Shown: one piece after another, positions 1 through 9,818 of the stretch
Position numbering within the stretch: the stretch's first letter is position 1
How the letters are laid out: each line of letters begins with the position of its first letter
DNA from: Candidatus Vampirococcus lugosii
GTDB lineage: Bacteria > Patescibacteriota > Gracilibacteria > Absconditabacterales > Absconditicoccaceae
Direction of reading: 5' to 3'
Assembly (NCBI RefSeq): GCF_018420025.1
Contig: NZ_JAEDAM010000037.1
Span: forward strand, 1-9,818
DNA length: 9,818 nucleotides
Position numbers and translations under genes: made by a program
Notes under the pieces: model-generated
What the model saw: only the letters and a program-made list of their open reading frames with translations
Told to the model about the DNA's origin: nothing
The model's database searches: none

Positions 1-3000
1 ATATCAAGATTAATTGAAGGTTCTACTATTGTAATAAGTTGATCAGATTGTCAAGTTAAAATTGTATCTCATAATTCATAATTTACTTCAACAGAATTTA
101 ATTTTGTATCTCACAATTTATTATTTTGAGAATCAAGAACGACAACATCATACTTAATAATTATATATTCTATATTAGTTCCAGTATTTGAATTTACTAT
201 ATCTTGAAATTCAAAATTTATATTTTCATTAATAATATTTTTAAATCATCAAGTATAAACTACTCAAGTTGATGCTTGTATTTCCAAACTATCTTGTAAT
301 ATAGATAATCCTGTTGGTAAAGTATCATTTATTTCAAGATTTTGAGTTGTTCATTTCAATAATGGAATTTGTATTTTATATTTTCATTTTTCTCATATTC
401 AAAGTTCTCAATTTCAAGGATTTTCAAGAGTTTTTATTATTCAATTATCTGTTCTTATATTTATTGTATCATAATCACTTGTAGTGTATTCTCTTCTATA
501 ATTATTATCAACTCAAGGATATGAATAATAGTCTATATTTACTGCTCAACTAAGTAATTCTCAATAAGTTACTGTATTTTCCAATATAGTATTATAAGTG
601 TATTCAATACTGTCTCATACTTCCAAAACTGTTGAACCTGAATTAAATTCATAATCTCAAGAAATAGTTGTTTTATTTGGAAGATTGTCTTCCCATTCCA
701 AATCATAAGCTGGTGCAGATCAATTATTTGTTATATTAATTGTTGTTTGTATTTCATCTCATCATTGTCAATAATTTTTACTAAATTCTTTACTTATAGT
801 AATATTAGGTTCTACTATATCAAATTTAGTTTTTTCTGTATTAGAACAATCAGGTTCACTATGTATTTTTTCATTATCATCTCAATTATAACTTAATTTA
901 ATTGTAGAATTTTTATTTCATCATGCTTGATTATTTGTATCATCAAGAACTATTGCTTTAGTTTCCAAAACAAAACCTGTTCAAGATCATGTTCATACAT
1001 TAATTATATCTCCAAAATCAAACTCTATAATATTTCAAGATAATGTTATATTATTTGATGTGTTTGATACTACTAAATTATTCAATATTTTTCATGTCAA
1101 AAATTCTATTCAATTAGGCAATTCTTGTTTAAGTTTTACTCATGTCAAATTTAGTTTTGGAATATCAACATTTATTTTATATGTAATTTCTTCTCATATA
1201 GCCAAATCTGAACAATTTATATTAAAATTATCTTTATTAGTTCCTGTAAGAGATGTTGATTCAATAAAATGATTTATTTCAAGATCATCAATATCTAAAT
1301 TAATAAAAGTGTCTCATGTATATTGTCTTTCTTCTCAATTATTATTTTTCAATGTTGAATATTCAAGATTTACTTTATTTTTTTCTTGTGTTCAAGCTAT
1401 AACTCATGATAGTACTTCTACTTCAAAATTTATAGTTTGTGTATTGTTAATAAGTAATTCATCAAGTGTTAATCAACTTGAGAATAAATCTTCAGCAGTC
1501 CCATTAAAATCTAAATTTCATGTTAATGTTCATGATAAATATTTAAGATTAGTAGGTAAAATATCTTTAACATTTAAATTATAAGCTGGAGAATTTGATG
1601 ATGAATTATGTTCAATATTAATTGTATATTTAACAGTATCTCATACTTGTGCATTTGAAGGATTTACCGTTTTACTTATATCAAGATTAGGTTCTACTAT
1701 ATCAAAATTTACTTGATTTGCAGTTTTACTATTATCTCAATCATAATTTATATTAATATTAGAATTTTTAGTATTTCATTCTTTATTATTTTCGTTATTA
1801 AGAACTCTTGCTGTAGTTTGTAAAACAAAACCAGTTCAAGATCAGGTTCATACATTAATTATATCTCCAAAATCAAACTCTATAATATTTCAAGATAATG
1901 TTATATTATTTGATGTGTTTGATACTACTGAATTATTCAATATTTTTCATGTCAAAAATTCTATTCAATTTGATAATTCTTGTTCAAGTGTTAATCATGT
2001 CAAATTTAATTTTGGAATTTCAATATTAATATTGTATATAACTTCTTCTCATATAGTTAAATTATCTCAATTTGTTCATGTAAGAGATGTTGATTCAATA
2101 AAATGATTTATTTCAAGATTATCAATATTTAAATCAATATTATCTGATTTATTATATTTTTTTTCATTTCAATTATTATTTTCTAATGTTGAATATTCAA
2201 GATTTACTTTATTTTTTTCTTGTGTTCAAGCTATAACTCATGATAGTACTTCTACTTCAAAATTTATAGTTTGTGTATTGTTAATAAGTAATTCATCAAG
2301 TGTTAATCAACTTGAGAATAAATCTTCAGCAGTCCCATTAAAATCTAAATTTCATGTTAATGTTCATGATAAATATTTAAGATTAGTAGGTAAAATATCT
2401 TTAACATTTAAATTATAAGCTGGAGAATTTGATGATGAATTATGTTCAATATTAATTTCATAAGATACTTCATCTCATACTTGTGCATTTGAAGGATTTA
2501 CTGTTTTACTTATATCAAGATTAGGTTCCAAAATATTAACAGGAGTATTTTTACTTATAGATTTAGATGAATAATTAAATTCTCATTCTGCTTTTCTATT
2601 TGTTCATTTTGAAATAGTATTTTTAACTATAGCATTAGTTTGTATTACAATACTTTGTGGATTTGTACTTGAATTAACTATATCTCAAAAATCTATTGTA
2701 GTTCATGTAAATATTGTTCAAGTTGTAATTGAAGATCAAGAAAAAGTTAAATCAGATCATAAGGAAACAATAGAACCACTAATAAATTCCAAATTACTAT
2801 GAAGATTTTCTTCAAATGAAGTTCATATATATGTTCATCATGATAAAGTAATTGTTGTCTCAAAACTTATTTTTTCTCATATAAGTAAATCGTTACCAGT
2901 ACTTCGTGTTTCTGAACTTCAAGAAATAATTCTTGATATTCATGGTCTTGCAAGTTCAAAATCAATATCAGTAGAAATAGGTCAGAAATTATTTACTTCT

Positions 3001-5615
3001 TTGGAATCAGCATCTTCACTTGAATAATAATCCATAGATATACTATTTTTTCTATTATTTCAATCTATAACAAAACCAGTAGTAGGAGCTAGTGTATAAT
3101 CAATAATAACAGATTTACCTTTTTTAATATTTGATCTTGAATTTATTTTATTAAAAGAAATTTCAAGATTTGTTCAAGATTGATTAAAATTTGCACCTGT
3201 TACTGTAAATCCTGATCAAACTATACTACCAGTATAAAAATTCATATTTTCTGGAATAATATCAATTAGATTTTCAACATAAGCATCATTTCTTCATTTT
3301 GAATTATCAATTATCACTTCAAAATCAACATTATTTCAATATGAAACATTTGTTCAAGTTGAATTTTTTGATACTTCTAAAGCAGGAAGTCATATAGTAA
3401 AAGGAACTTCCATTTTATTCATATTAAAAAGTTTTCATTCAGAATTTCTAAAACTTGCTATAGCTACATTTTTTTGTGGAAGTTCTCATTCATTATTGTA
3501 AGAAGAAGGTTTTTTATCCAAAATATCAACATCAAAAGTAATAGCAAAAGTATTACCTCACATTCAACTTCATAAATTAAATTCAATATTATTTGCATCC
3601 GTTGTTTCTATCCAATGATTATCTGATGCAGTATCTCAACTTAAAACAAGACCATTAAATTCATTATTAATTCAATTCCAATCATTTGTAAGTAGATCAT
3701 TTCAAAATATATCTTTAAGATTTTCATCAGTTTGAAAATTTATATTAGATATATTATCATTTGGTCACATTAATAATGGAATAGCATCTTTTATATTTAT
3801 TCATGTAAAATATACATTTGGAAATTCTACTTCTATAGCAAATTTAAGAGTAGATCATACGGGTAAAGCAGTTCAAGTATTATAATTACTATTATTATCA
3901 CTATTATAAATTGTTCAATCAGGTAATTCTACTGAAATTAATCTTTTTTTATTTGTAGGAACTGGAGCAGTTACACTTGCACTAGAATTGTATTCAAGAC
4001 TTGTTCATACAAGATAAGTATATCAATATCACCACCATCCAGAATAAACATATGAAATATATCAATAAAATTTGGCTTGATTAGTTAAAGTTTTTGTATT
4101 TTCATAAGTTCAATCTTCAATATCTCAATCCAAAATTGCTCTATATTCTATTGTTACAGTATCACCAGAATAAATATGTCAAGTTCATAAAGAAAAAATT
4201 AATTCAGTTTCTCAAGTATTAAGTAATTTTGATCAAGAAAAAGTAAAATTATTTCATGATCAAGAATTTGTACTTGAAAAATTTCATGTATATGATATTC
4301 AATCTGGTAAAGTATCAACAATATAAGTACCAGAACCTAAAGCTCCAAAATCAATATTTTTACCAAGATTTAATGTAAGTGTATAATTCAATTCATCTCA
4401 TATAACTGGATTTGATTTATCAACAATTTTACTAAAACTAGCATAAACTAAAGAATAAGTAGTTGATTTTTTGATAGAAGATGTTATTTGATTTGAAGTA
4501 TTTCATTTGTTCCATGTTCATTCTGCAAGCATTGTTGTATCACTTGACCAAGAATCTCAATTATTTATTTGAGCTGATTCATTTAATTCTATACTTCAAT
4601 CTAGATTGTATGAATCAATTTGAGATGATAATCACCTAGTTTTGTATTTAATTTCAAGAGTTTGTCCAGTTCATACATTAATTCATGATAAATCAAGTTG
4701 TACATATCAAGAATCATCACCAGTAAGATAATTTATGTTTATATTTGATACTCATCATGTTTGAGTAAATCATAAAAACTCTCTATTATTAGAAACAATT
4801 TCTTGAATATGTAAATCATTTAATGATCATTGAGAATTTCATTCAATTTTTATTGAAGTTTCATATTCATTTCAAACTATAAATTTTGTAGCTCAAGCTT
4901 TTGATATTTTATAAGGTACAAAACTAGTTGTAGCAGATTCAAAATAAAATCATTCTATATAATTAATACCAGATTCATAAAATTGATAATATGGACCAAA
5001 ATAAAAAGTATATCAATTTGCAGATTCAAAAAGATTTGCGGGGAAATTTATATCATTTGCATTATATTCAATAATTGATCATGTACCAGCAAAATTTATT
5101 GAACCTGGCATTGCTGACGAAGGTGCTCAATCTGGAACTGCTCATCTTCAATATATACTATTTTCAGCATATGCAAGAACCTTTATTTCTGTATCATCAA
5201 AAAGATCTATATTATTATTAGATTTTAAATTTAAAGTATAATTTTCAGAAGTTGTCTGTACTAATACATCATCAGTTTTGAAAAATAAATATTGTCATCA
5301 TGTATATGAAATTATTTCATAAGGATCTCATAAATCACTACTAGAAATAAATTCAATATTATCTGGAATATTTACTATAAATCAAGGATTAAATGCCTCT
5401 CATTCAGAACTTTTTTTATTTTTAAGATTTATTTTTAGTTGAAAATTTTCTCATAAAATATTTGATTCACTAAGTGAAGGATTTACTTCAAGATCTAATT
5501 TTGCTGATCAATCAATATTAGAACCAGAACCATTAGCAAAAATATTATTAAAAATAAAAGTTCATATAAATAATATGGAAATAATTAATAATTTTATTAT
5601 TTTGTTCAAACTCAT
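1..5615 (-). CDS. Giant secreted surface protein / putative adhesin built from repeated DUF11-type (TIGR01451-like conserved repeat domain) beta-sandwich modules. The N-terminus is complete and the C-terminus runs off the left edge (>=1871 codons, table 25).
   Basis: I checked every codon of the minus-strand frame by hand (plus-strand codon starts divisible by 3). There is no TAA or TAG from 5615 down to 3, while TGA occurs very often. In sequence this AT-rich, that is not expected by chance. The ATG at 5613-5615 has an in-frame TAA at 5619-5621, one codon upstream, so it is the first possible start. The N-terminus is MSLNKIIKLLIISILFIGTFIFNNIFA/NGSGS. The recurrent module EPNLDISKTVNPSNAQVGDEVSYEINIEHNSSSNSPAYNLNVKDILPTNLKYLSGT (2361-2528, twin at 1527-1694) fits the DUF11 pattern (GD-x-V-x-Y-x-I ... 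A-x-N-x-x-V-x-D-x-LP-x-x-L-x-Y). At least six such modules are recognisable, e.g. KIVDKSNPVIGDELNYTLTLNL...VDTLPDGISY and ITISKEFSKNYGQGGDEIQTTINITNNGSAPAYDLEWEDNLP. Confidence 0.85.
808..2523 (-). repeat. Intragenic tandem duplication of a two-domain module inside the adhesin gene: unit A 808-1689 (882 bp, 294 codons) and unit B 1690-2523 (834 bp, 278 codons).
   Basis: Direct comparison shows that 1351-1623 and 2185-2457 are identical over 273 bp. Segments 1639-1689 and 2473-2523 differ at 1 position. About 170 bp around 975-1140 differs from 1830-1995 by only a handful of mismatches. The remaining stretches are clearly diverged and carry in-frame indels: the offsets between matching landmarks are 882, 855 and 834 bp, all multiples of 3. 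The similar plus-strand track ORFs at 1060..1272 and 1915..2106 are antisense echoes of this repeat. Confidence 0.9.
5535..5615 (-). other. Predicted Sec-type signal peptide of the giant surface protein (about 27 aa).
   Basis: The translation is MSLNKIIKLLIISILFIGTFIFNNIFA|NGSGSN. It has Lys residues in the n-region, an uninterrupted hydrophobic core, and small residues (F-A) before a polar Asn/Gly/Ser stretch. The cleavage position is my estimate only. Confidence 0.6.
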
Positions 5616-5626
5616 TTTTTATTTTT

Positions 5627-5653
5627 ATATATGTAAAATATATTTACATATAT
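5627..5653. promoter_or_regulatory. AT-rich palindrome (11-bp arms, 5-nt spacer) 12 nt upstream of the adhesin start codon. Possible operator or weak RNA hairpin; function unknown.
   Basis: The sequence atatatgtaaa-atata-tttacatatat has arms that are perfect reverse complements. It lies in the 68-nt gap (5616-5683) between the small ORF stop and the adhesin ATG. A weak sigma70-like pair on the minus strand overlaps it: TTGACT at 5672-5677 and TATAAT at 5652-5657. The spacer between them is only 14 nt. Confidence 0.3.
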
Positions 5654-5683
5654 TATATATAAAAATAAAAAAGTCAAAATATT

Positions 5684-6079
5684 TTATATATTATAATTAT
5701 TTGTATTATTTGTAGTTCATGCTTCATCTGGTCTTATTTTTTTAGTTATAGCAGTTAATACTTCTGTTCTGAAATGAAAATCTCATATTCTATTTATATT
5801 AGAATCTAAAACATTTCTTCATTCAATTTTTAATTTAATTGTATTATTAAATAATCTACACATTTGTTCTTTTTCTATATCTAATCTAGTAATTATTTGA
5901 TTTCTATTTTCGGTATCTTGTGGAATTAAATCTTTTTTTTCATCAAAAATATTATTTATTATATCTTTTCATTTATCCAAAAAATCTGATAAAGTAATTT
6001 TTTCATTGTTTTCTTCATTTGATAATAATTTTTCAAATCTATTATCTAGCTTAAAATTTCATTCATCTTTATTTCACAT
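5684..6079 (-). CDS. Hypothetical small hydrophilic, charged protein (131 aa, table 25) with no recognisable family.
   Basis: The ORF runs from ATG 6077-6079 to TAA 5684-5686, with 5 or more in-frame TGAs and no TAA/TAG. An open run of 131 codons (168 if the upstream open frame to 6187 is counted) is very unlikely by chance at this AT content. The translation is MGNKDEGNFKLDNRFEKLLSNEENNEKITLSDFLDKGKDIINNIFDEKKDLIPQDTENRNQIITRLDIEKEQMCRLFNNTIKLKIEGRNVLDSNINRIGDFHFRTEVLTAITKKIRPDEAGTTNNTNNYNI. It starts 13 nt after the TAG of the upstream gene. The start is uncertain because upstream in-frame TTG codons exist at 6145, 6172 and 6181. Confidence 0.6.
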
Positions 6080-6092
6080 AATTTCTTGTAAA

Positions 6093-8804
6093 CTAAAACC
6101 TCCAAAAATTGATCCTAATAAATAGGAAGTTTTTTTTGGGATCAATTCAAGCTTGTGATTTCAAATTTGCAACTTTATCAAGTTTATTTACTCTTCTTCA
6201 TCATTCAATAGCAGAGAATAAAAAAGATTTAACAACATCTCTAACACCAATATCTTCATTATCTAATCATTTAATATTTGCTGATAAAGCGGATATAGCC
6301 GTTATATCAATTCCTAATAAAGCAAGTTTTCAAGCTATATCTTTATTATTTAAAATATTTCTAAAATCCATATTTTTTGTAAAACCTAAATAACCAAGAG
6401 CAGCAGCTGAAACATAAAAATCATTTCATCGATTTCATTCTTGATTTCATAATTTACCGTCTCTGATAAGTCATTCAGTTTCAACAGAGAAAAAATTGAA
6501 AGGCACTGATTTTGCAATTCAAACTCATCATTTTATTGTATTTTGTGCACCTTCCCAATTATTAATAACTTTAGAAGCACCTTTAATGAATCAATCCCCT
6601 TTTTGATACCATGTAGTTGATTTATATGCTCTAAGTCATCTTATAGTTGCACTTGTAGCGGCCCTTGCTCACATAGTGAGAAGTTTAGTTGCTATCATTG
6701 ATAATCAAACTCAAGCTACACTAGAAAGTCATATAATTGCTATTTCAAATGCAAGTTCTCACAAAATTTCTTTAGTATCATTAGATAAGTTAAACCATCA
6801 AATTCATTCTATATCACCATACATTTTCAAAAAAGGATTATTACCATCATAAGATCAAGACCAATTTGTATTTGTTTTAACAATTGCTTCTGTTATAGAT
6901 TGATTTACAGCACCTTGTAATAACATTACTTCTAATTCTTTTTTTGCATCATTTTCTGCATCAGCAATAAGTTTTTTAATTTTTTCTTTTTCTTCTTCAT
7001 CTTCTACATCATCTAATTTTTCTTCTAAATTATTTATATAATTATCAATTATTCCATCTGATTGACTAACTACCTTTTCTATCCTTTTAAAAAATTGAGA
7101 AATTTTTCTATTAAGTTCCATCCCTTGACTAAGTTCTCAATGTTCATTATTAAATAATCAAGAATTTATAAATTTTTCAATAATCGGATCATGTTCTAGA
7201 TTAGAACTTTCTATACGACCTCCACGAGATGTAGATTTATATAATTTAGAAATAATATTGTCTATTCATTCTTCTTGTATATATGAAATTAATTCATTAA
7301 TATCTCAATGATTAATTTGATTTTCAAAATCATATCAATAATCTTCATTTTCACCATATTCGGTTAATATATCAGGATTATTAATTACATATTCTTGAAC
7401 TAATTCTCATGCTTTTTTATGATCACCAAATTCCGTTTCTATTATTTGAAAAAGTTCTAAATGTCTATCATGTGAGCTTTTACCATCTTTATTATTTAGT
7501 AATTCATCAATTTTATTTCTTAATCATTCATTTTTATCTATCATTTTTGGTAAACTTCATACTCTATGTAGATGTTTATCTTCTACTATTATATCATCAA
7601 TTATAGTGCTTTTAATATTTTCTAATTTACTTGTTAATTCTTTTTGTACTTTTTGTAAATTATCTTCAATTCATCATTCTTCATAATCTCATATTATATT
7701 TATCAACATACCTTTCATAGGAACAGGAGAAGATAAGTATAAATCAATATAAGATATTTTTTCATAAATATCTCAAGATTCATTGTCTAAATCATTAAGT
7801 GCATCCAAATCTAATTCTATATTTTCTACTCTTCCAAAAACATTTTTTTTCTCATAATCTCATTGAAAAACATATAATAATTCTTTGGCAATATCAAAAT
7901 CTTCCAAACATTCTTCTTTTACTTTTTCCAAGAATTCTTTTGATTTCTCAAAATCTTTACTTTCAAAAAAATTTTTTGATTCCATAAAATCTGATATTTT
8001 TTCTTCAATTCAATTTAATCATTTAAGATGTGGATATTTATCAAAAAAATCTTCTATATTAGAACCAAAACTATTCATACTTTCAAAAATATCATCAAAG
8101 TCAGTTTCAATTATATCTCAATTATATAATATATTAAACTTTCACTCTTCATAATTAGAACTTAATAAAATTGGTGTATTTTCCATTTTTTCAATATATT
8201 CTCTAATTTCAGAATATGTATCTGGAGATATATTATTATATTCTGCTATTTCATCCCAAGTAATTCATTTACTTAATAATTCCATTAAATTAAAATAAGA
8301 TTCATCACCATTTTCATCTTTATAATTAATCATAAGATTATCGTTATCAGAAACTTGAAAAACTTTACTATCTTTTATATTAATAGTTAATGATTGTCAT
8401 ATATTTATTTTATCAACATCTTCTATTTCGTTTTTATCAATTAAATATTCAATTTTTAATCAATAATCTTTTGCAATTTGAGATAATATATCTCAATGCA
8501 TAACATCATGTTCTATTGTTTGTTGAACTCTTTCATCAATATTATTTAATAAATTAGTGACCAAATCATTTGATTTATATTCCATATCATTATTTGCAAT
8601 AATTTTTATCAAAAAATCAACTAATCAATATTGAATAGCTTCTTTTTGAGAATCACTGAGTTCATCTGTATCATAAATTTCTTCCATAAAAGAAGATGAT
8701 TTTAATACTATACTTTCAACAATATTTTCTTTTTCTTCAGAGGAAATATCACTATTTTCCAATCTAGTATCAACTGCTTTTTGTGTAAATTGTTCTATAC
8801 TCAT
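6093..8804 (-). CDS. 903-aa LysM domain-containing orphan protein (table 25): acidic helical N-terminal two-thirds and a hydrophobic Gly/Ala-rich C-terminal third, with no signal peptide.
   Basis: The ORF runs from ATG 8802-8804 (MSIEQFTQKAVDTRLENSD...) to TAG 6093-6095 (...KKNFLFIRINFWRF*). I translated every codon by hand and found only TGA interruptions. The track ORFs 8625..8921(-) and 6855..7121(-) are in the same frame and are fragments of this gene, each cut at a TGA. The LysM match is at residues ~100-143. I prefer the 8804 start over the track start at 8921. The 39-codon extension reads like translated AT-rich promoter DNA (YPKKIIANKYFLYIIYSKHYIFKYKLI) and contains a good TTGCAA-16-TATAAT promoter candidate. 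Confidence 0.8.
6096..6770 (-). other. C-terminal hydrophobic / Gly-Ala-rich region of the 903-aa protein, probably membrane-associated. The strongest transmembrane-helix candidate is at 6690-6743.
   Basis: The translation begins ...EILGELAFEIAIIGLSSVAGVGLSMIATKLLTMGARAATSATIRGLRAY..., with an 18-residue uncharged core IAIIGLSSVAGVGLSMIA at residues ~688-705. Shorter amphipathic or hydrophobic stretches follow: FYVSAAALGYLGF, IAGKLALLGIDITAISALSANI and VVKSFLFSAIEGG. The composition changes abruptly from the preceding Asp/Glu/Lys-rich region. This is assessed by eye only; I ran no TM predictor. Confidence 0.5.
8376..8507 (-). other. LysM (peptidoglycan/chitin-binding) domain within the 903-aa protein.
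   Basis: DVMHGDILSQIAKDYGLKIEYLIDKNEIEDVDKINIGQSLTINI aligns with the LysM consensus Y-x-V-x-x-GDTL-x-x-IA-x-x-YG-x-x-x-x-x-L-x-x-x-N-...-L-x-x-GQ-x-L-x-I. All three signature glycines (GD, YG, GQ) are encoded by TGA, at 8493-8495, 8460-8462 and 8397-8399. Confidence 0.75.
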
Positions 8805-8841
8805 AATTAATTTATATTTAAATATATAATGTTTTGAATAA

Positions 8842-8869
8842 ATTATATATAAAAAATATTTATTTGCAA
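8842..8869 (-). promoter_or_regulatory. Candidate sigma70-type promoter for the LysM-protein gene or operon.
   Basis: On the minus strand, TTGCAA (8864-8869) is followed by a 16-nt spacer and then TATAAT (8842-8847). This sits ~38 nt upstream of the ATG at 8804. The background is so AT-rich that -10-like hexamers are common, hence the low confidence. Confidence 0.35.
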
Positions 8870-9064
8870 TAATTTTTTTGGGGTAGTGTGCTGTAAATGT
8901 TAAAATGTCAGTATAACTCATCTTTGTAGAACAAAATTTCTAAAAACTTGATTTAGACAAGGATTTGCGAGAAAATAAAAAATTTTTTATATATTATATA
9001 ATTTTATATTATTTAAAACAATAATTTACTATTTAATTCTTTATTTTTAGATTAATTTTCAATA

Positions 9065-9097
9065 CAAGTTATTTTTTAAAAATAAAAAAATAACTTG
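9065..9097. promoter_or_regulatory. Perfect 13-bp inverted repeat with a 7-nt spacer in the divergent intergenic region. Candidate operator or RNA stem-loop.
   Basis: caagttatttttt (9065-9077), aaaaata, aaaaaataacttg (9085-9097). The arms are exact reverse complements. The right arm overlaps a TTGAAA -35-like hexamer at 9095-9100. Confidence 0.4.
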
Positions 9098-9122
9098 AAA
9101 AAGATAAAAAAAATAATATAAG
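9095..9122 (+). promoter_or_regulatory. Weak candidate promoter for the pilin gene.
   Basis: TTGAAA (9095-9100), a 16-nt spacer, then TATAAG (9117-9122), ~60 nt upstream of the ATG at 9183. Each hexamer matches consensus at 5 of 6 positions. AT-rich context makes chance matches likely. Confidence 0.25.
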
Positions 9123-9136
9123 TATTGAAAATATTA

Positions 9137-9164
9137 TTAATATTTAATATTTAATATTTAATAG
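9137..9164. repeat. Tandem heptamer (TTAATAT)x3 plus a degenerate fourth copy (TTAATAG), immediately upstream of the pilin gene.
   Basis: Read directly: ttaatat (9137-9143), ttaatat (9144-9150), ttaatat (9151-9157), ttaatag (9158-9164). The repeat ends 18 nt before the pilin ATG. Confidence 0.7.
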
Positions 9165-9182
9165 CTAAAAACTAATGAAAAA

Positions 9183-9818
9183 ATGGGAAATAATAAATGA
9201 TTTACATTAGTAGAGTTGATAGTAACAATAGCTATAATATCAATATTGGCGGTAGTAGCAGGATTAACACTTACACATTTTGTGGGGAAATCAAGAGATA
9301 CACAAGTAGTAAGTAATATAAATACAGTTGCCAAATGATTAGATATGTATTATATAAGTAATTGAGAATATCCTGAGCCAGATAATTTTACATGAGTATG
9401 AATAAAACAATGAGAGTGGTGAAGTGGTAAATCATCAGAAATAGAAATAATACCTCATCCTAAAAATAGTGATAAATCTAGTTTTGTATATACTATAACA
9501 GATAATCAAAAAAGTTATACTATAGCTGGATGGTTGGAAAATGAGTTAGTTATGAATGGTTTGTATACAGATAAATTGTATGCAAGAAATAATTATACAG
9601 ATATGATACTTTACAAAAAATGACAAATTCCAGTAATTGTAAAAGAAGATAATTGGGTTCCAGTTACTAATACAAATAGTGATTGATCTTCGTTTGTTGT
9701 ATTATGAGATAATAGTGAGATTGTAAAAAAACAAGATGGAACAAGTTTATCAGGTGATACTTTGGATGAAGTATTTAGTTGAGTAAATGAATATGTAGAA
9801 CAACAATGATCTACTTGA
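9183..9818 (+). CDS. Type IV pilin-like protein (prepilin-type N-terminal cleavage/methylation domain). The 5' end is complete and the ORF runs off the right edge (>=212 codons, table 25).
   Basis: The translation begins MGNNKG|FTLVELIVTIAIISILAVVAGLTLTHFVGKSRDTQVVSNINTVAKGLDMYYISNGEYPEP.... It has a short basic leader, Gly at -1, Phe at +1, Glu at +5 and a ~22-residue hydrophobic helix. It then has the pilin-typical (A/L)xxYYxxNGxYP motif. The G(-1) (9198-9200) and the NG of NGEYP (9363-9365) are TGA codons. I count 13 in-frame TGA against 8 GGN codons and no TAA/TAG. The last codon in the window (9816-9818) is TGA, so the ORF continues. Confidence 0.85.

Follow-up and report, generated by a model that had tools for sequence, protein, structure and literature searches.

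Three adjacent genes for predicted envelope proteins on a code-25 Absconditabacteria/Gracilibacteria contig, one of them a LysM gene interrupted at a poly-A tract

Results

Genes and features of the window

The stretch of DNA analysed here (the window) is an entire contig of 9818 bp, and the genes at both of its ends are incomplete. Translation with table 11 yielded fragments only; when UGA was read as a sense codon, four long frames appeared, at 3..5618(-), 5684..6187(-), 6093..8939(-) and 9165..9818(+), containing 201 in-frame TGA codons between them. The features assigned to the window, with the evidence for each, are as follows.

1..5615, minus strand: gene for a giant secreted repeat protein of at least 1871 aa; frame starts at base 3 and the 3′ end lies beyond the contig (Pfam, TIGR01451, hydrophobicity)
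5616..5683, minus strand: 68-nt spacer from the LysM gene stop to the giant-protein ATG (palindrome and promoter-like site)
5684..6129, minus strand: C-terminal tail of the LysM gene; this assembly has it in the +1 frame with respect to the upstream part, to which it is fused in contig L001
6130..6137, minus strand: poly-A tract (T8 on the plus strand); A8 splits the gene and A7, in the Logan contig, keeps it whole
6138..8804, minus strand: main body of the LysM gene (ORF, domain models, hydrophobicity, homologue alignment)
6678..6821, minus strand: best-conserved block of the family, followed by a hydrophobic helix (hydrophobicity, homologue alignment)
8382..8498, minus strand: LysM domain, aa 142-180 of the 942-aa form (Pfam LysM, 7e-09; PDB LysM matches)
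8805..9182, no strand: A/T-rich divergent intergenic region of 378 bp between the LysM and pilin genes (coordinates)
9183..9818, plus strand: type IV prepilin gene of at least 212 aa, 3′ end beyond the contig (N_methyl, TIGR02532, GspG N-terminus)

Starts at 5615, 6079, 8804 and 9183 reproduce the spacings of 68, 13 and 378 nt given in an earlier reading of this DNA made from its letters (the sequence-only reading). The ends of the contig hide the genes that flank the pilin and the giant protein.

The genetic code was examined by aligning the TGA codons of the LysM gene to its homologue from Candidatus Absconditicoccus praedator, described below. Glycine was faced by 20 of the 46 codons, against a background glycine frequency of 7.5%, and tryptophan by none (0/46). 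The invariant glycine at position -1 of the prepilin cleavage site is likewise encoded by TGA. TGA at these glycine positions bears out the earlier proposal of code 25, and by this evidence UGA is glycine in the window organism, as in code 25 and not code 4.

The two terminal genes

The giant-protein gene, which carries 138 in-frame TGA codons, matched DUF11 (PF01345) at 104.6 bits against a cutoff of 24.6 (5e-30, four stretches) and TIGR01451 at 140.4 bits against a cutoff of 24 (1e-41, five stretches). About ten DUF11-type or related β-sandwich modules are arranged in a chain, the gene contains a recent 834-nt tandem duplication, and a hydrophobic stretch at aa 1-29 fits an N-terminal signal peptide. 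No LPxTG-like motif was found in the 1871 aa present, the C-terminus lying beyond the contig. The protein is predicted to be exported by Sec as a chain of DUF11-type β-sandwich domains. A surface fibre is its most likely form, and a role in adhesion may be proposed.

At the opposite end, the prepilin matched N_methyl (PF07963) at 35.4 bits against a cutoff of 21.2 (6.6e-09), TIGR02532 at 33.5 bits against a cutoff of 16.3 (2.3e-08) and the GspG N-terminus at 3.6e-10. Its sequence consists of the leader MGNNKG followed by FTLVELIVTIAIISILAVVAG, with the cut falling before FTLVE. From this motif the prepilin is presumably cleaved after the leader glycine and polymerised into a pilus. A single-sequence AlphaFold model of the incomplete gene product reached a pLDDT of 40.0, the N-terminal helix alone being confident. 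In a cluster look-up both the pilin and the giant protein were singletons.

A poly-A tract divides a single LysM gene

The sequence-only reading counted four genes in the window, one of them a small orphan at 5684..6079 separated from the LysM gene by a 13-nt gap that was taken for a plausible operon junction. In the deposited assembly the upstream frame of the LysM gene (frame A) does reach a stop, at 6093-6095, giving a product of 942 aa. The window was compared with an independent assembly, contig L001 of the Logan assembly of SRR13241709. Over 6516 aligned bases (∼6.5 kb) a single difference was found, A7 in place of A8 at 6130-6137. In the A7 version the LysM gene continues through the small orphan as one ORF with no internal stop; its product has 1039 aa if translation begins at the ATG at 8804 and 1078 aa if it begins at 8921. 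This repaired ORF is collinear with the A. praedator protein (residues 62-1076 of the query against 20-1084 of the subject, E 6e-95), and the alignment opens at the Met encoded at 8804, which supports that start. The small orphan by itself matches the C-terminus of the same protein (aa 967-1091, E 2e-15); it makes up the C-terminal ∼130 aa of the LysM gene and lies within the tail at 5684..6129. Its frame, at 168 codons, is barely longer than the longest stop-free run in shuffled sequence (maximum 158 codons).

Since tail and main body form one gene, the 13-nt junction is a frameshift site rather than an intergenic gap, as both L001 and the full-length homologue indicate, and three genes are present instead of four. 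On homology, the ancestral and functional state of the LysM gene is a single gene. The extra A in the A8 tract is either an assembly error or a variant within the population.

It is possible, though we consider it unlikely, that the frameshift at A8 has a biological basis. The tract might act as a switch of the cytoplasmic tail, through phase variation or rescue by slippage, or the gene might be an emerging pseudogene that yields a truncated protein of 903 aa and a separately translated product of 131 aa. Two otherwise identical assemblies differ only in the length of this tract, an in-frame ATG lies 17 codons past it, and rescue by poly-A slippage is known in A/T-rich reduced genomes, from studies of Buchnera and Blochmannia. 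The tract is, however, just 8 nt long, and the two assemblies agree at four further A/T runs of 8 nt in the window wherever these are covered. Translation signals do not help this reading: a Shine-Dalgarno motif is missing at all three accepted start codons, and the sole GGAGG upstream of the internal ATG lies ∼20 nt away, too distant, leaving no mark of a translation start there. A homopolymer error of assembly or consensus is the simpler reading of A8.

Domains and topology of the LysM protein

The LysM domain scored 35.9 bits against a cutoff of 20.9 for PF01476, so that DUF11, N_methyl and LysM all lie above their model cutoffs and the domain guesses of the sequence-only reading hold. A PDB profile match to the LysM of Ecp6 was obtained (E 1.6e-09), and multi-LysM proteins align over aa 137-236, where a second, weaker LysM-like module lies ∼40 aa downstream of the first. 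These modules are carried by an N-terminal part of ∼680 aa that is acidic and mostly helical; the 942-aa frame-A product has a net charge of -67 and its N-terminal 700 aa are acidic throughout. The best-conserved block of the family contains the motif YGDIEGIGxFN (6789-6821), directly followed by a hydrophobic helix (6678-6770, aa 718-748 of the 942-aa form). Past the helix the protein is neutral to basic and includes a basic, Gly-rich loop.

The N-terminus of the protein is not hydrophobic, and no signal peptide was found. Matches to NCBIfam, PHROGs and PDB profiles were confined to the LysM module, and the C-terminal 395 aa had no Pfam match at E ≤ 1. Comparison with toxin, pore-former, lysin and phage families (NCBIfam, PDB, PHROGs, Pfam and phage records) revealed no similarity. 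A homologue-led structure model was poor (pLDDT 42.5), and a fold search with that poor model gave no match at E ≤ 0.001.

The hydrophobic segment would most simply be a membrane anchor. The predicted protein of ∼1039 aa would then begin with an acidic helical LysM part, continue through the YGDIEGIG motif into a single transmembrane helix and a basic loop, and finish in a tail of ∼330 aa; by the positive-inside rule this tail would be cytoplasmic, with the LysM part facing the wall. Its role is most likely that of a membrane-to-peptidoglycan tether or scaffold. It is unusual for ∼680 aa to adopt an N-out topology when no signal peptide precedes them, and this counts against an otherwise preferred explanation. 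The sequence-only reading saw in this region a membrane-inserting, envelope-breaching end; with no likeness to toxins, lysins or pore-formers, it resembles an ordinary transmembrane anchor with a basic loop.

Relatives of the LysM protein

A single homologue could be detected, a protein of 1087 aa from A. praedator (UFX83428.1/WP_231177726.1, genome CP054059.1) annotated as 'LysM peptidoglycan-binding domain-containing protein'. A. praedator is a cultured epibiotic predatory Absconditabacterium. The two products previously described as orphans without a family are consequently one protein with an annotated LysM homologue. When 1.84 billion representatives were scanned in full with HMMER, the A. 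praedator homologue alone was returned beyond LysM-only matches. The LysM protein, the small ORF and a two-sequence profile also served as queries in word-indexed searches, and only the window's own proteins appeared among the matches listed; these are weak negatives, with at most 8000 candidates considered for a query of low complexity. Genome and metagenome contigs, scanned both by alignment and with a degenerate motif, contained no further locus of the family, the genome collection being one without A. praedator, and viral contigs, scanned with the degenerate motif alone, contained none either. The degenerate motif allowed Gly as GGN or TGA, required the exact conserved motif and was checked on both known loci. 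Other LysM matches (P0008, P0019, P0049 and P0071) were dismissed on inspection as generic multi-LysM wall enzymes. Protein databases under-represent code-25 genomes because most public ones are mis-called with table 11. By these searches the family is lineage-restricted, comprising so far only A. praedator and the window organism.

Spacers and neighbourhoods

The 68-nt spacer between the LysM and giant-protein genes contains an A/T-only imperfect palindrome that abuts the giant-protein ATG (fold z = -3.35), together with a promoter-like site, TTGACT and TAATAT separated by 16 nt, at 5677-5650. No G+C-rich terminator was seen between the two genes. In the 378-bp divergent region the best promoter-like match lies at 8869-8842, upstream of 8804. 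The promoter scan as a whole performed no better than chance, with 35 matches against 39.8 in shuffled sequences. The 378-bp region had no Rfam match, and an Rfam scan of the window gave one sub-threshold chance match. Co-transcription of the LysM and giant-protein genes, proposed from their co-orientation and the 68-nt gap, is not supported.

In A. praedator the homologue is surrounded by ychF, an alaS fragment, greA, folA, glyA and other genes. No match to a DUF11 protein or adhesin, or to a pilin, was obtained by tblastn within ±10 kb, and no prepilin motif was present in that interval.

Discussion

Taken together, these data probably describe three adjacent envelope-protein genes in a code-25 Absconditabacteria/Gracilibacteria bacterium, and not a demonstrated functional island. 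That every gene in the window encodes an envelope protein, as the sequence-only reading held, agrees with the domain models and hydrophobic stretches. Where proteomes are rich in surface proteins, such shared location of neighbours is weak evidence for a system. Recognition of the frameshifted tail removes a false orphan gene and settles the start and true extent of the LysM protein, which becomes a candidate for study in the cultured A. praedator system.

The larger proposal was that the locus forms one contact-dependent module for attachment and attack, co-transcribed and with a common control region, in which a pilus provides reach, a DUF11 fibre provides attachment, and binding to prey peptidoglycan and insertion into or breach of the prey envelope fall to the LysM protein. 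If true, it would offer a concrete genetic way into the question of how code-25 predators or episymbionts attach to their prey and open it. In its favour, each of the three products is an envelope protein; the LysM and giant-protein genes point the same way, and the 68 nt that separate them contain no G+C-rich terminator; the only LysM homologue is that of a cultured epibiotic predator; and published work ascribes host attachment to pili and giant DUF11 proteins (PMC8080830). The proposal is nevertheless improbable. Lack of conserved synteny had been named by the sequence-only reading itself as the result that would refute it, and because the adjacency of pilin, LysM and DUF11 genes is missing in A. 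praedator the idea fails by that criterion, in a single comparison with one genome at 25% identity. The LysM protein, moreover, shows no lysin, toxin or pore-former similarity, no catalytic domain and no secretion signal; its hydrophobic segment with a basic C-terminal flank resembles an anchor for the membrane of the producing cell itself; and the 68-nt gap itself holds a promoter-like site and a palindrome. With a synteny test of n=1, the window organism may still possess a lineage-specific module, but nothing supports 'envelope attack'.

The position of the LysM gene, adjoining and diverging from the prepilin gene, raises the further idea that its product is a pilus-associated peptidoglycan anchor or scaffold, an analogue of FimV or TsaP divergently co-regulated with the pilin. 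With its LysM domain, its long and largely acidic body and its single transmembrane helix, all within ∼1000 aa, the protein does resemble the FimV/HubP architecture, and these features are shared with FimV, HubP and TsaP, the LysM proteins associated with type IV pili in diderm bacteria. We nevertheless regard such an analogy as quite doubtful. FimV and TsaP models in NCBIfam gave no match at E ≤ 0.1; FimV/HubP-type scaffolds are marked by a signal peptide, by the FimV core with its C-terminal motifs and by an acidic cytoplasmic region behind the helix, a combination that the window protein does not show; and the domain order differs from that of FimV, the acidic region preceding the helix on the same side as LysM. 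The neighbourhood of the A. praedator homologue contains neither a pilin gene nor other pilus genes. A secretin is not expected if these CPR cells have a single membrane.

More speculative still, and with very little probability attached to it, is a combined scheme in which the LysM-acidic-transmembrane factor would act with the neighbouring pilus and DUF11 fibre at prey contact while its cytoplasmic tail was toggled by A7/A8 slippage. That the contig is part of a phage or mobile element, with a fibre encoded by the giant-protein gene and a tape-measure or lysis protein by the LysM gene, is a negligible prospect and was dismissed: tape-measure proteins can join long helical regions, wall-binding domains and hydrophobic segments, but PHROG matches were confined to the LysM module, 50,697 phage records gave 0 tblastn matches and viral contigs 0 motif matches, and the A. 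praedator homologue sits among chromosomal housekeeping genes.

Comparison with known systems

The closest known counterpart of the LysM protein is its A. praedator homologue, also encoded in code 25, which is collinear over its full length and shares the LysM modules, the sequence YGDIEGIGxFNLS, the hydrophobic helix, the basic loop and a C-terminal helical tail. The two differ in length (1087 aa against 1039 aa for the repaired window gene) and are 25% identical; the gene is intact in A. praedator whereas it is frameshifted in the window, and its neighbours are housekeeping genes there and the pilin and giant DUF11 protein here. The prepilin resembles type IVa pilins and GspG-like pseudopilins in having a leader of six residues with Gly as the last, F at +1, E at +5 and a hydrophobic α-1 helix. 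Unlike them, it has a mature part of more than 205 aa, still unfinished at the contig end, a globular part without a family match, and a Gly(-1) specified by UGA.

For Candidatus Vampirococcus lugosii, giant membrane or surface DUF11 proteins and a rich repertoire of pili have been proposed to serve host recognition and attachment (Moreira et al. 2021, PMC8080830), and host lysis was assigned to a hemolysin, a holin, a transglycosylase and peptidoglycan hydrolases (PMC8080830). A pilin-LysM-DUF11 cluster is not described in PMC8080830, and the likeness of that system to the window is one of theme and broad lineage. That Absconditabacteria attach to their hosts by means of type IV pili and giant DUF11 proteins is plausible and has already been published (PMC8080830); what remains here is the lineage-restricted LysM family, so far limited to two organisms.

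Reading frames and genetic code

Under translation table 11 only short ORFs are found across the window (G+C ~22%). Reading UGA as sense opens four long frames, which hold 201 in-frame TGA codons in total. The window is the entire 9818-bp database record, and both end genes are therefore truncated.

Long frames with UGA read as sense
3..5618, minus strand, giant DUF11 protein gene
5684..6187, minus strand, 'small orphan'
6093..8939, minus strand, LysM gene
9165..9818, plus strand, prepilin gene

Among 1.84 billion representative proteins, all scanned with HMMER, one homologue of the LysM protein was found beyond LysM-only matches: P0007 (UFX83428.1, RefSeq WP_231177726.1; 1087 aa, E 3e-68), annotated 'LysM peptidoglycan-binding domain-containing protein' and encoded on the 1.13-Mb chromosome of Candidatus Absconditicoccus praedator. 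Judged from the alignment of the LysM gene with this protein, TGA is glycine, not tryptophan, in the window organism: 20 of the 46 aligned TGA codons face Gly (background frequency 7.5%) and none faces Trp. Within the window, a TGA (9198-9200) encodes the invariant glycine at -1 of the prepilin cleavage site, in itself a concise proof of UGA as glycine in this organism. TGA makes up 62-100% of the glycine codons in each gene. The proposal of code 25 was thus borne out.

The small orphan is the tail of the LysM gene

Among the members of the LysM protein's 90% cluster is one of 1078 aa from the Logan assembly of SRR13241709. Its contig corresponds to window 8944..2428 and differs from it at a single position in 6516 bases, with A7 in place of A8 at 6130-6137. 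Deleting one A fuses the LysM frame with that of the 'small orphan', with no stop between them. The repaired protein aligns with P0007 almost end to end (residues 62-1076 against 20-1084, E 6e-95), and the 131-aa orphan alone matches P0007 residues 967-1091 (E 2e-15). From the fusion and both alignments it follows that the orphan is the LysM gene's C-terminal tail and that the 13-nt 'junction' is a frameshift site; the A8 tract is either an assembly error or a genuine variant. Four more 8-nt A/T runs occur in the window (5933-5940, 7843-7850, 2157-2164 and 9106-9113; n=5 in all), and only 6130-6137, which is also the frame-breaking one, varies between the two assemblies. Of the four genes claimed by the sequence-only reading, the coordinates stand and the count falls to three; its two undescribed proteins are one gene with an annotated homologue.

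Two annotation versions exist for each of these two frames, of 942 and 903 aa for LysM and of 153 and 131 aa for the small ORF. An unrelated 57-aa 'ribosomal protein L39E' (P0004) also appears in the LysM cluster at 90% identity, evidently as a clustering artefact.

Gene starts and spacers

Starts at 5615, 6079, 8804 and 9183 reproduce the gaps of 68, 13 and 378 nt proposed earlier. Since the P0007 alignment begins exactly at Met 8804, this LysM start, and with it the 378-bp spacer, is favoured over the gene caller's 8921. A scan for sigma-70-type promoters found 35 sites against 39.8 in shuffles, fewer than expected by chance; its best minus-strand match lies directly upstream of 8804. Most of the 68-nt spacer preceding the giant gene is occupied by an A/T-only imperfect palindrome (5617-5672, minus strand; fold z = -3.35), which abuts the AUG of the giant protein and is overlapped by a promoter-like TTGACT-16-TAATAT at 5677-5650. 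The palindrome could be an operator, a translational hairpin or mere A/T-rich symmetry. An Rfam search matched no family, and the Shine-Dalgarno motif is absent at all three start codons. A short G+C-richer patch, GACAAGGATTTGCGAG (8955-8972), lies in the otherwise A/T-only divergent spacer.

Giant protein and prepilin

The N-terminus of the giant protein is hydrophobic, its DUF11 / TIGR01451 repeats score far above the cutoffs, and self-comparison resolves the protein into a chain of ~10 related modules. Its gene carries a very recent tandem duplication with a period of 834 nt, the length of a DUF11 module together with its partner. The Logan contig breaks off inside the repeat, so the number of copies assembled may not be reliable.

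Duplicated blocks of 300 nt inside the giant gene
1319-1618 and 2153-2452, 98% identical
also 869-1168 and 1724-2023

The plus-strand gene encodes a textbook prepilin N-terminus. In the protein collection, the pilin and the giant protein each form a singleton cluster. The domains guessed earlier were correct, and the surface-protein content of the window is upheld.

Neighbourhood of the LysM homologue

The sequence-only reading had proposed an attachment and envelope-attack module and named lack of conserved synteny as an outcome that would refute it; this outcome was obtained in the one comparable genome, A. praedator.

Neighbours of the P0007 gene in A. praedator
Upstream: ychF, 175-aa hypothetical, alanyl-tRNA synthetase fragment, 83-aa hypothetical
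Downstream: 298-aa hypothetical, two small ORFs, greA, folA, glyA, further housekeeping genes

In tblastn searches (code 25), the giant protein and the pilin were unmatched in 23 kb of this locus (L002) and the neighbours of the P0007 gene were unmatched in the window; a six-frame scan of the locus for prepilin motifs found none. The module idea is weakened and not killed, since this is a single comparison at 25% identity. The P0007 gene is tightly flanked by two charged hypotheticals, of 83 aa (L002 9747-9998) and 298 aa (13298-14194), with gaps of 2 and 12 nt. Neither matches a family or has a counterpart in the window, so A. praedator may have another small operon at this site. Profile and motif scans of genome and metagenome collections yielded no further loci, and a motif scan of a viral collection gave no match; the motif pattern does match both known loci. 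So far the LysM family is found only in A. praedator and the window organism, which adds its second member.

Likely role of the LysM protein

The N-terminal ~680 aa are acidic and helical and include two LysM modules, one of them clear and the other weaker. Next come the block YGDIEGIGxFNLS, where conservation within the family is highest, and a helix (aa 718-748 in the 942-aa form) with 18-25 hydrophobic residues; a Gly-rich, strongly basic segment and ~330 more residues follow. A second hydrophobic patch does not keep its hydrophobicity in P0007. Outside LysM, no part was recognised in Pfam, NCBIfam, PHROGs, PDB sequences or phage genomes; the AlphaFold model of P0007 is poor (pLDDT 42.5), and its fold search gave no significant match. 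The charge pattern suggests a cytoplasmic tail and a LysM part directed toward the wall, from which we infer a probable role as membrane-to-peptidoglycan tether or scaffold within the envelope of the producer itself. That the protein lacks a signal peptide is a difficulty for this reading. Nothing points to the lytic or pore-forming function that 'envelope attack' implied.

Comparison with known systems

For this lineage, the Vampirococcus lugosii study already describes a membrane proteome enriched in giant proteins, whose domains include DUF11 and others for adhesion, together with a rich type IV pilus repertoire; both have been read as serving host recognition and attachment, and host lysis has been attributed to other proteins (PMC8080830). 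Expressed pili and adhesion-type proteins have been reported in Gracilibacteria (PMC11452946). The window is a further example of known gene kinds, a giant DUF11 protein and a type IV pilin, and its remaining value lies in a corrected gene model and a testable LysM family present in a cultured predator. Compared with pilus-associated LysM proteins of the FimV and TsaP types, the LysM protein is alike in general architecture only and differs from them in sequence and topology.
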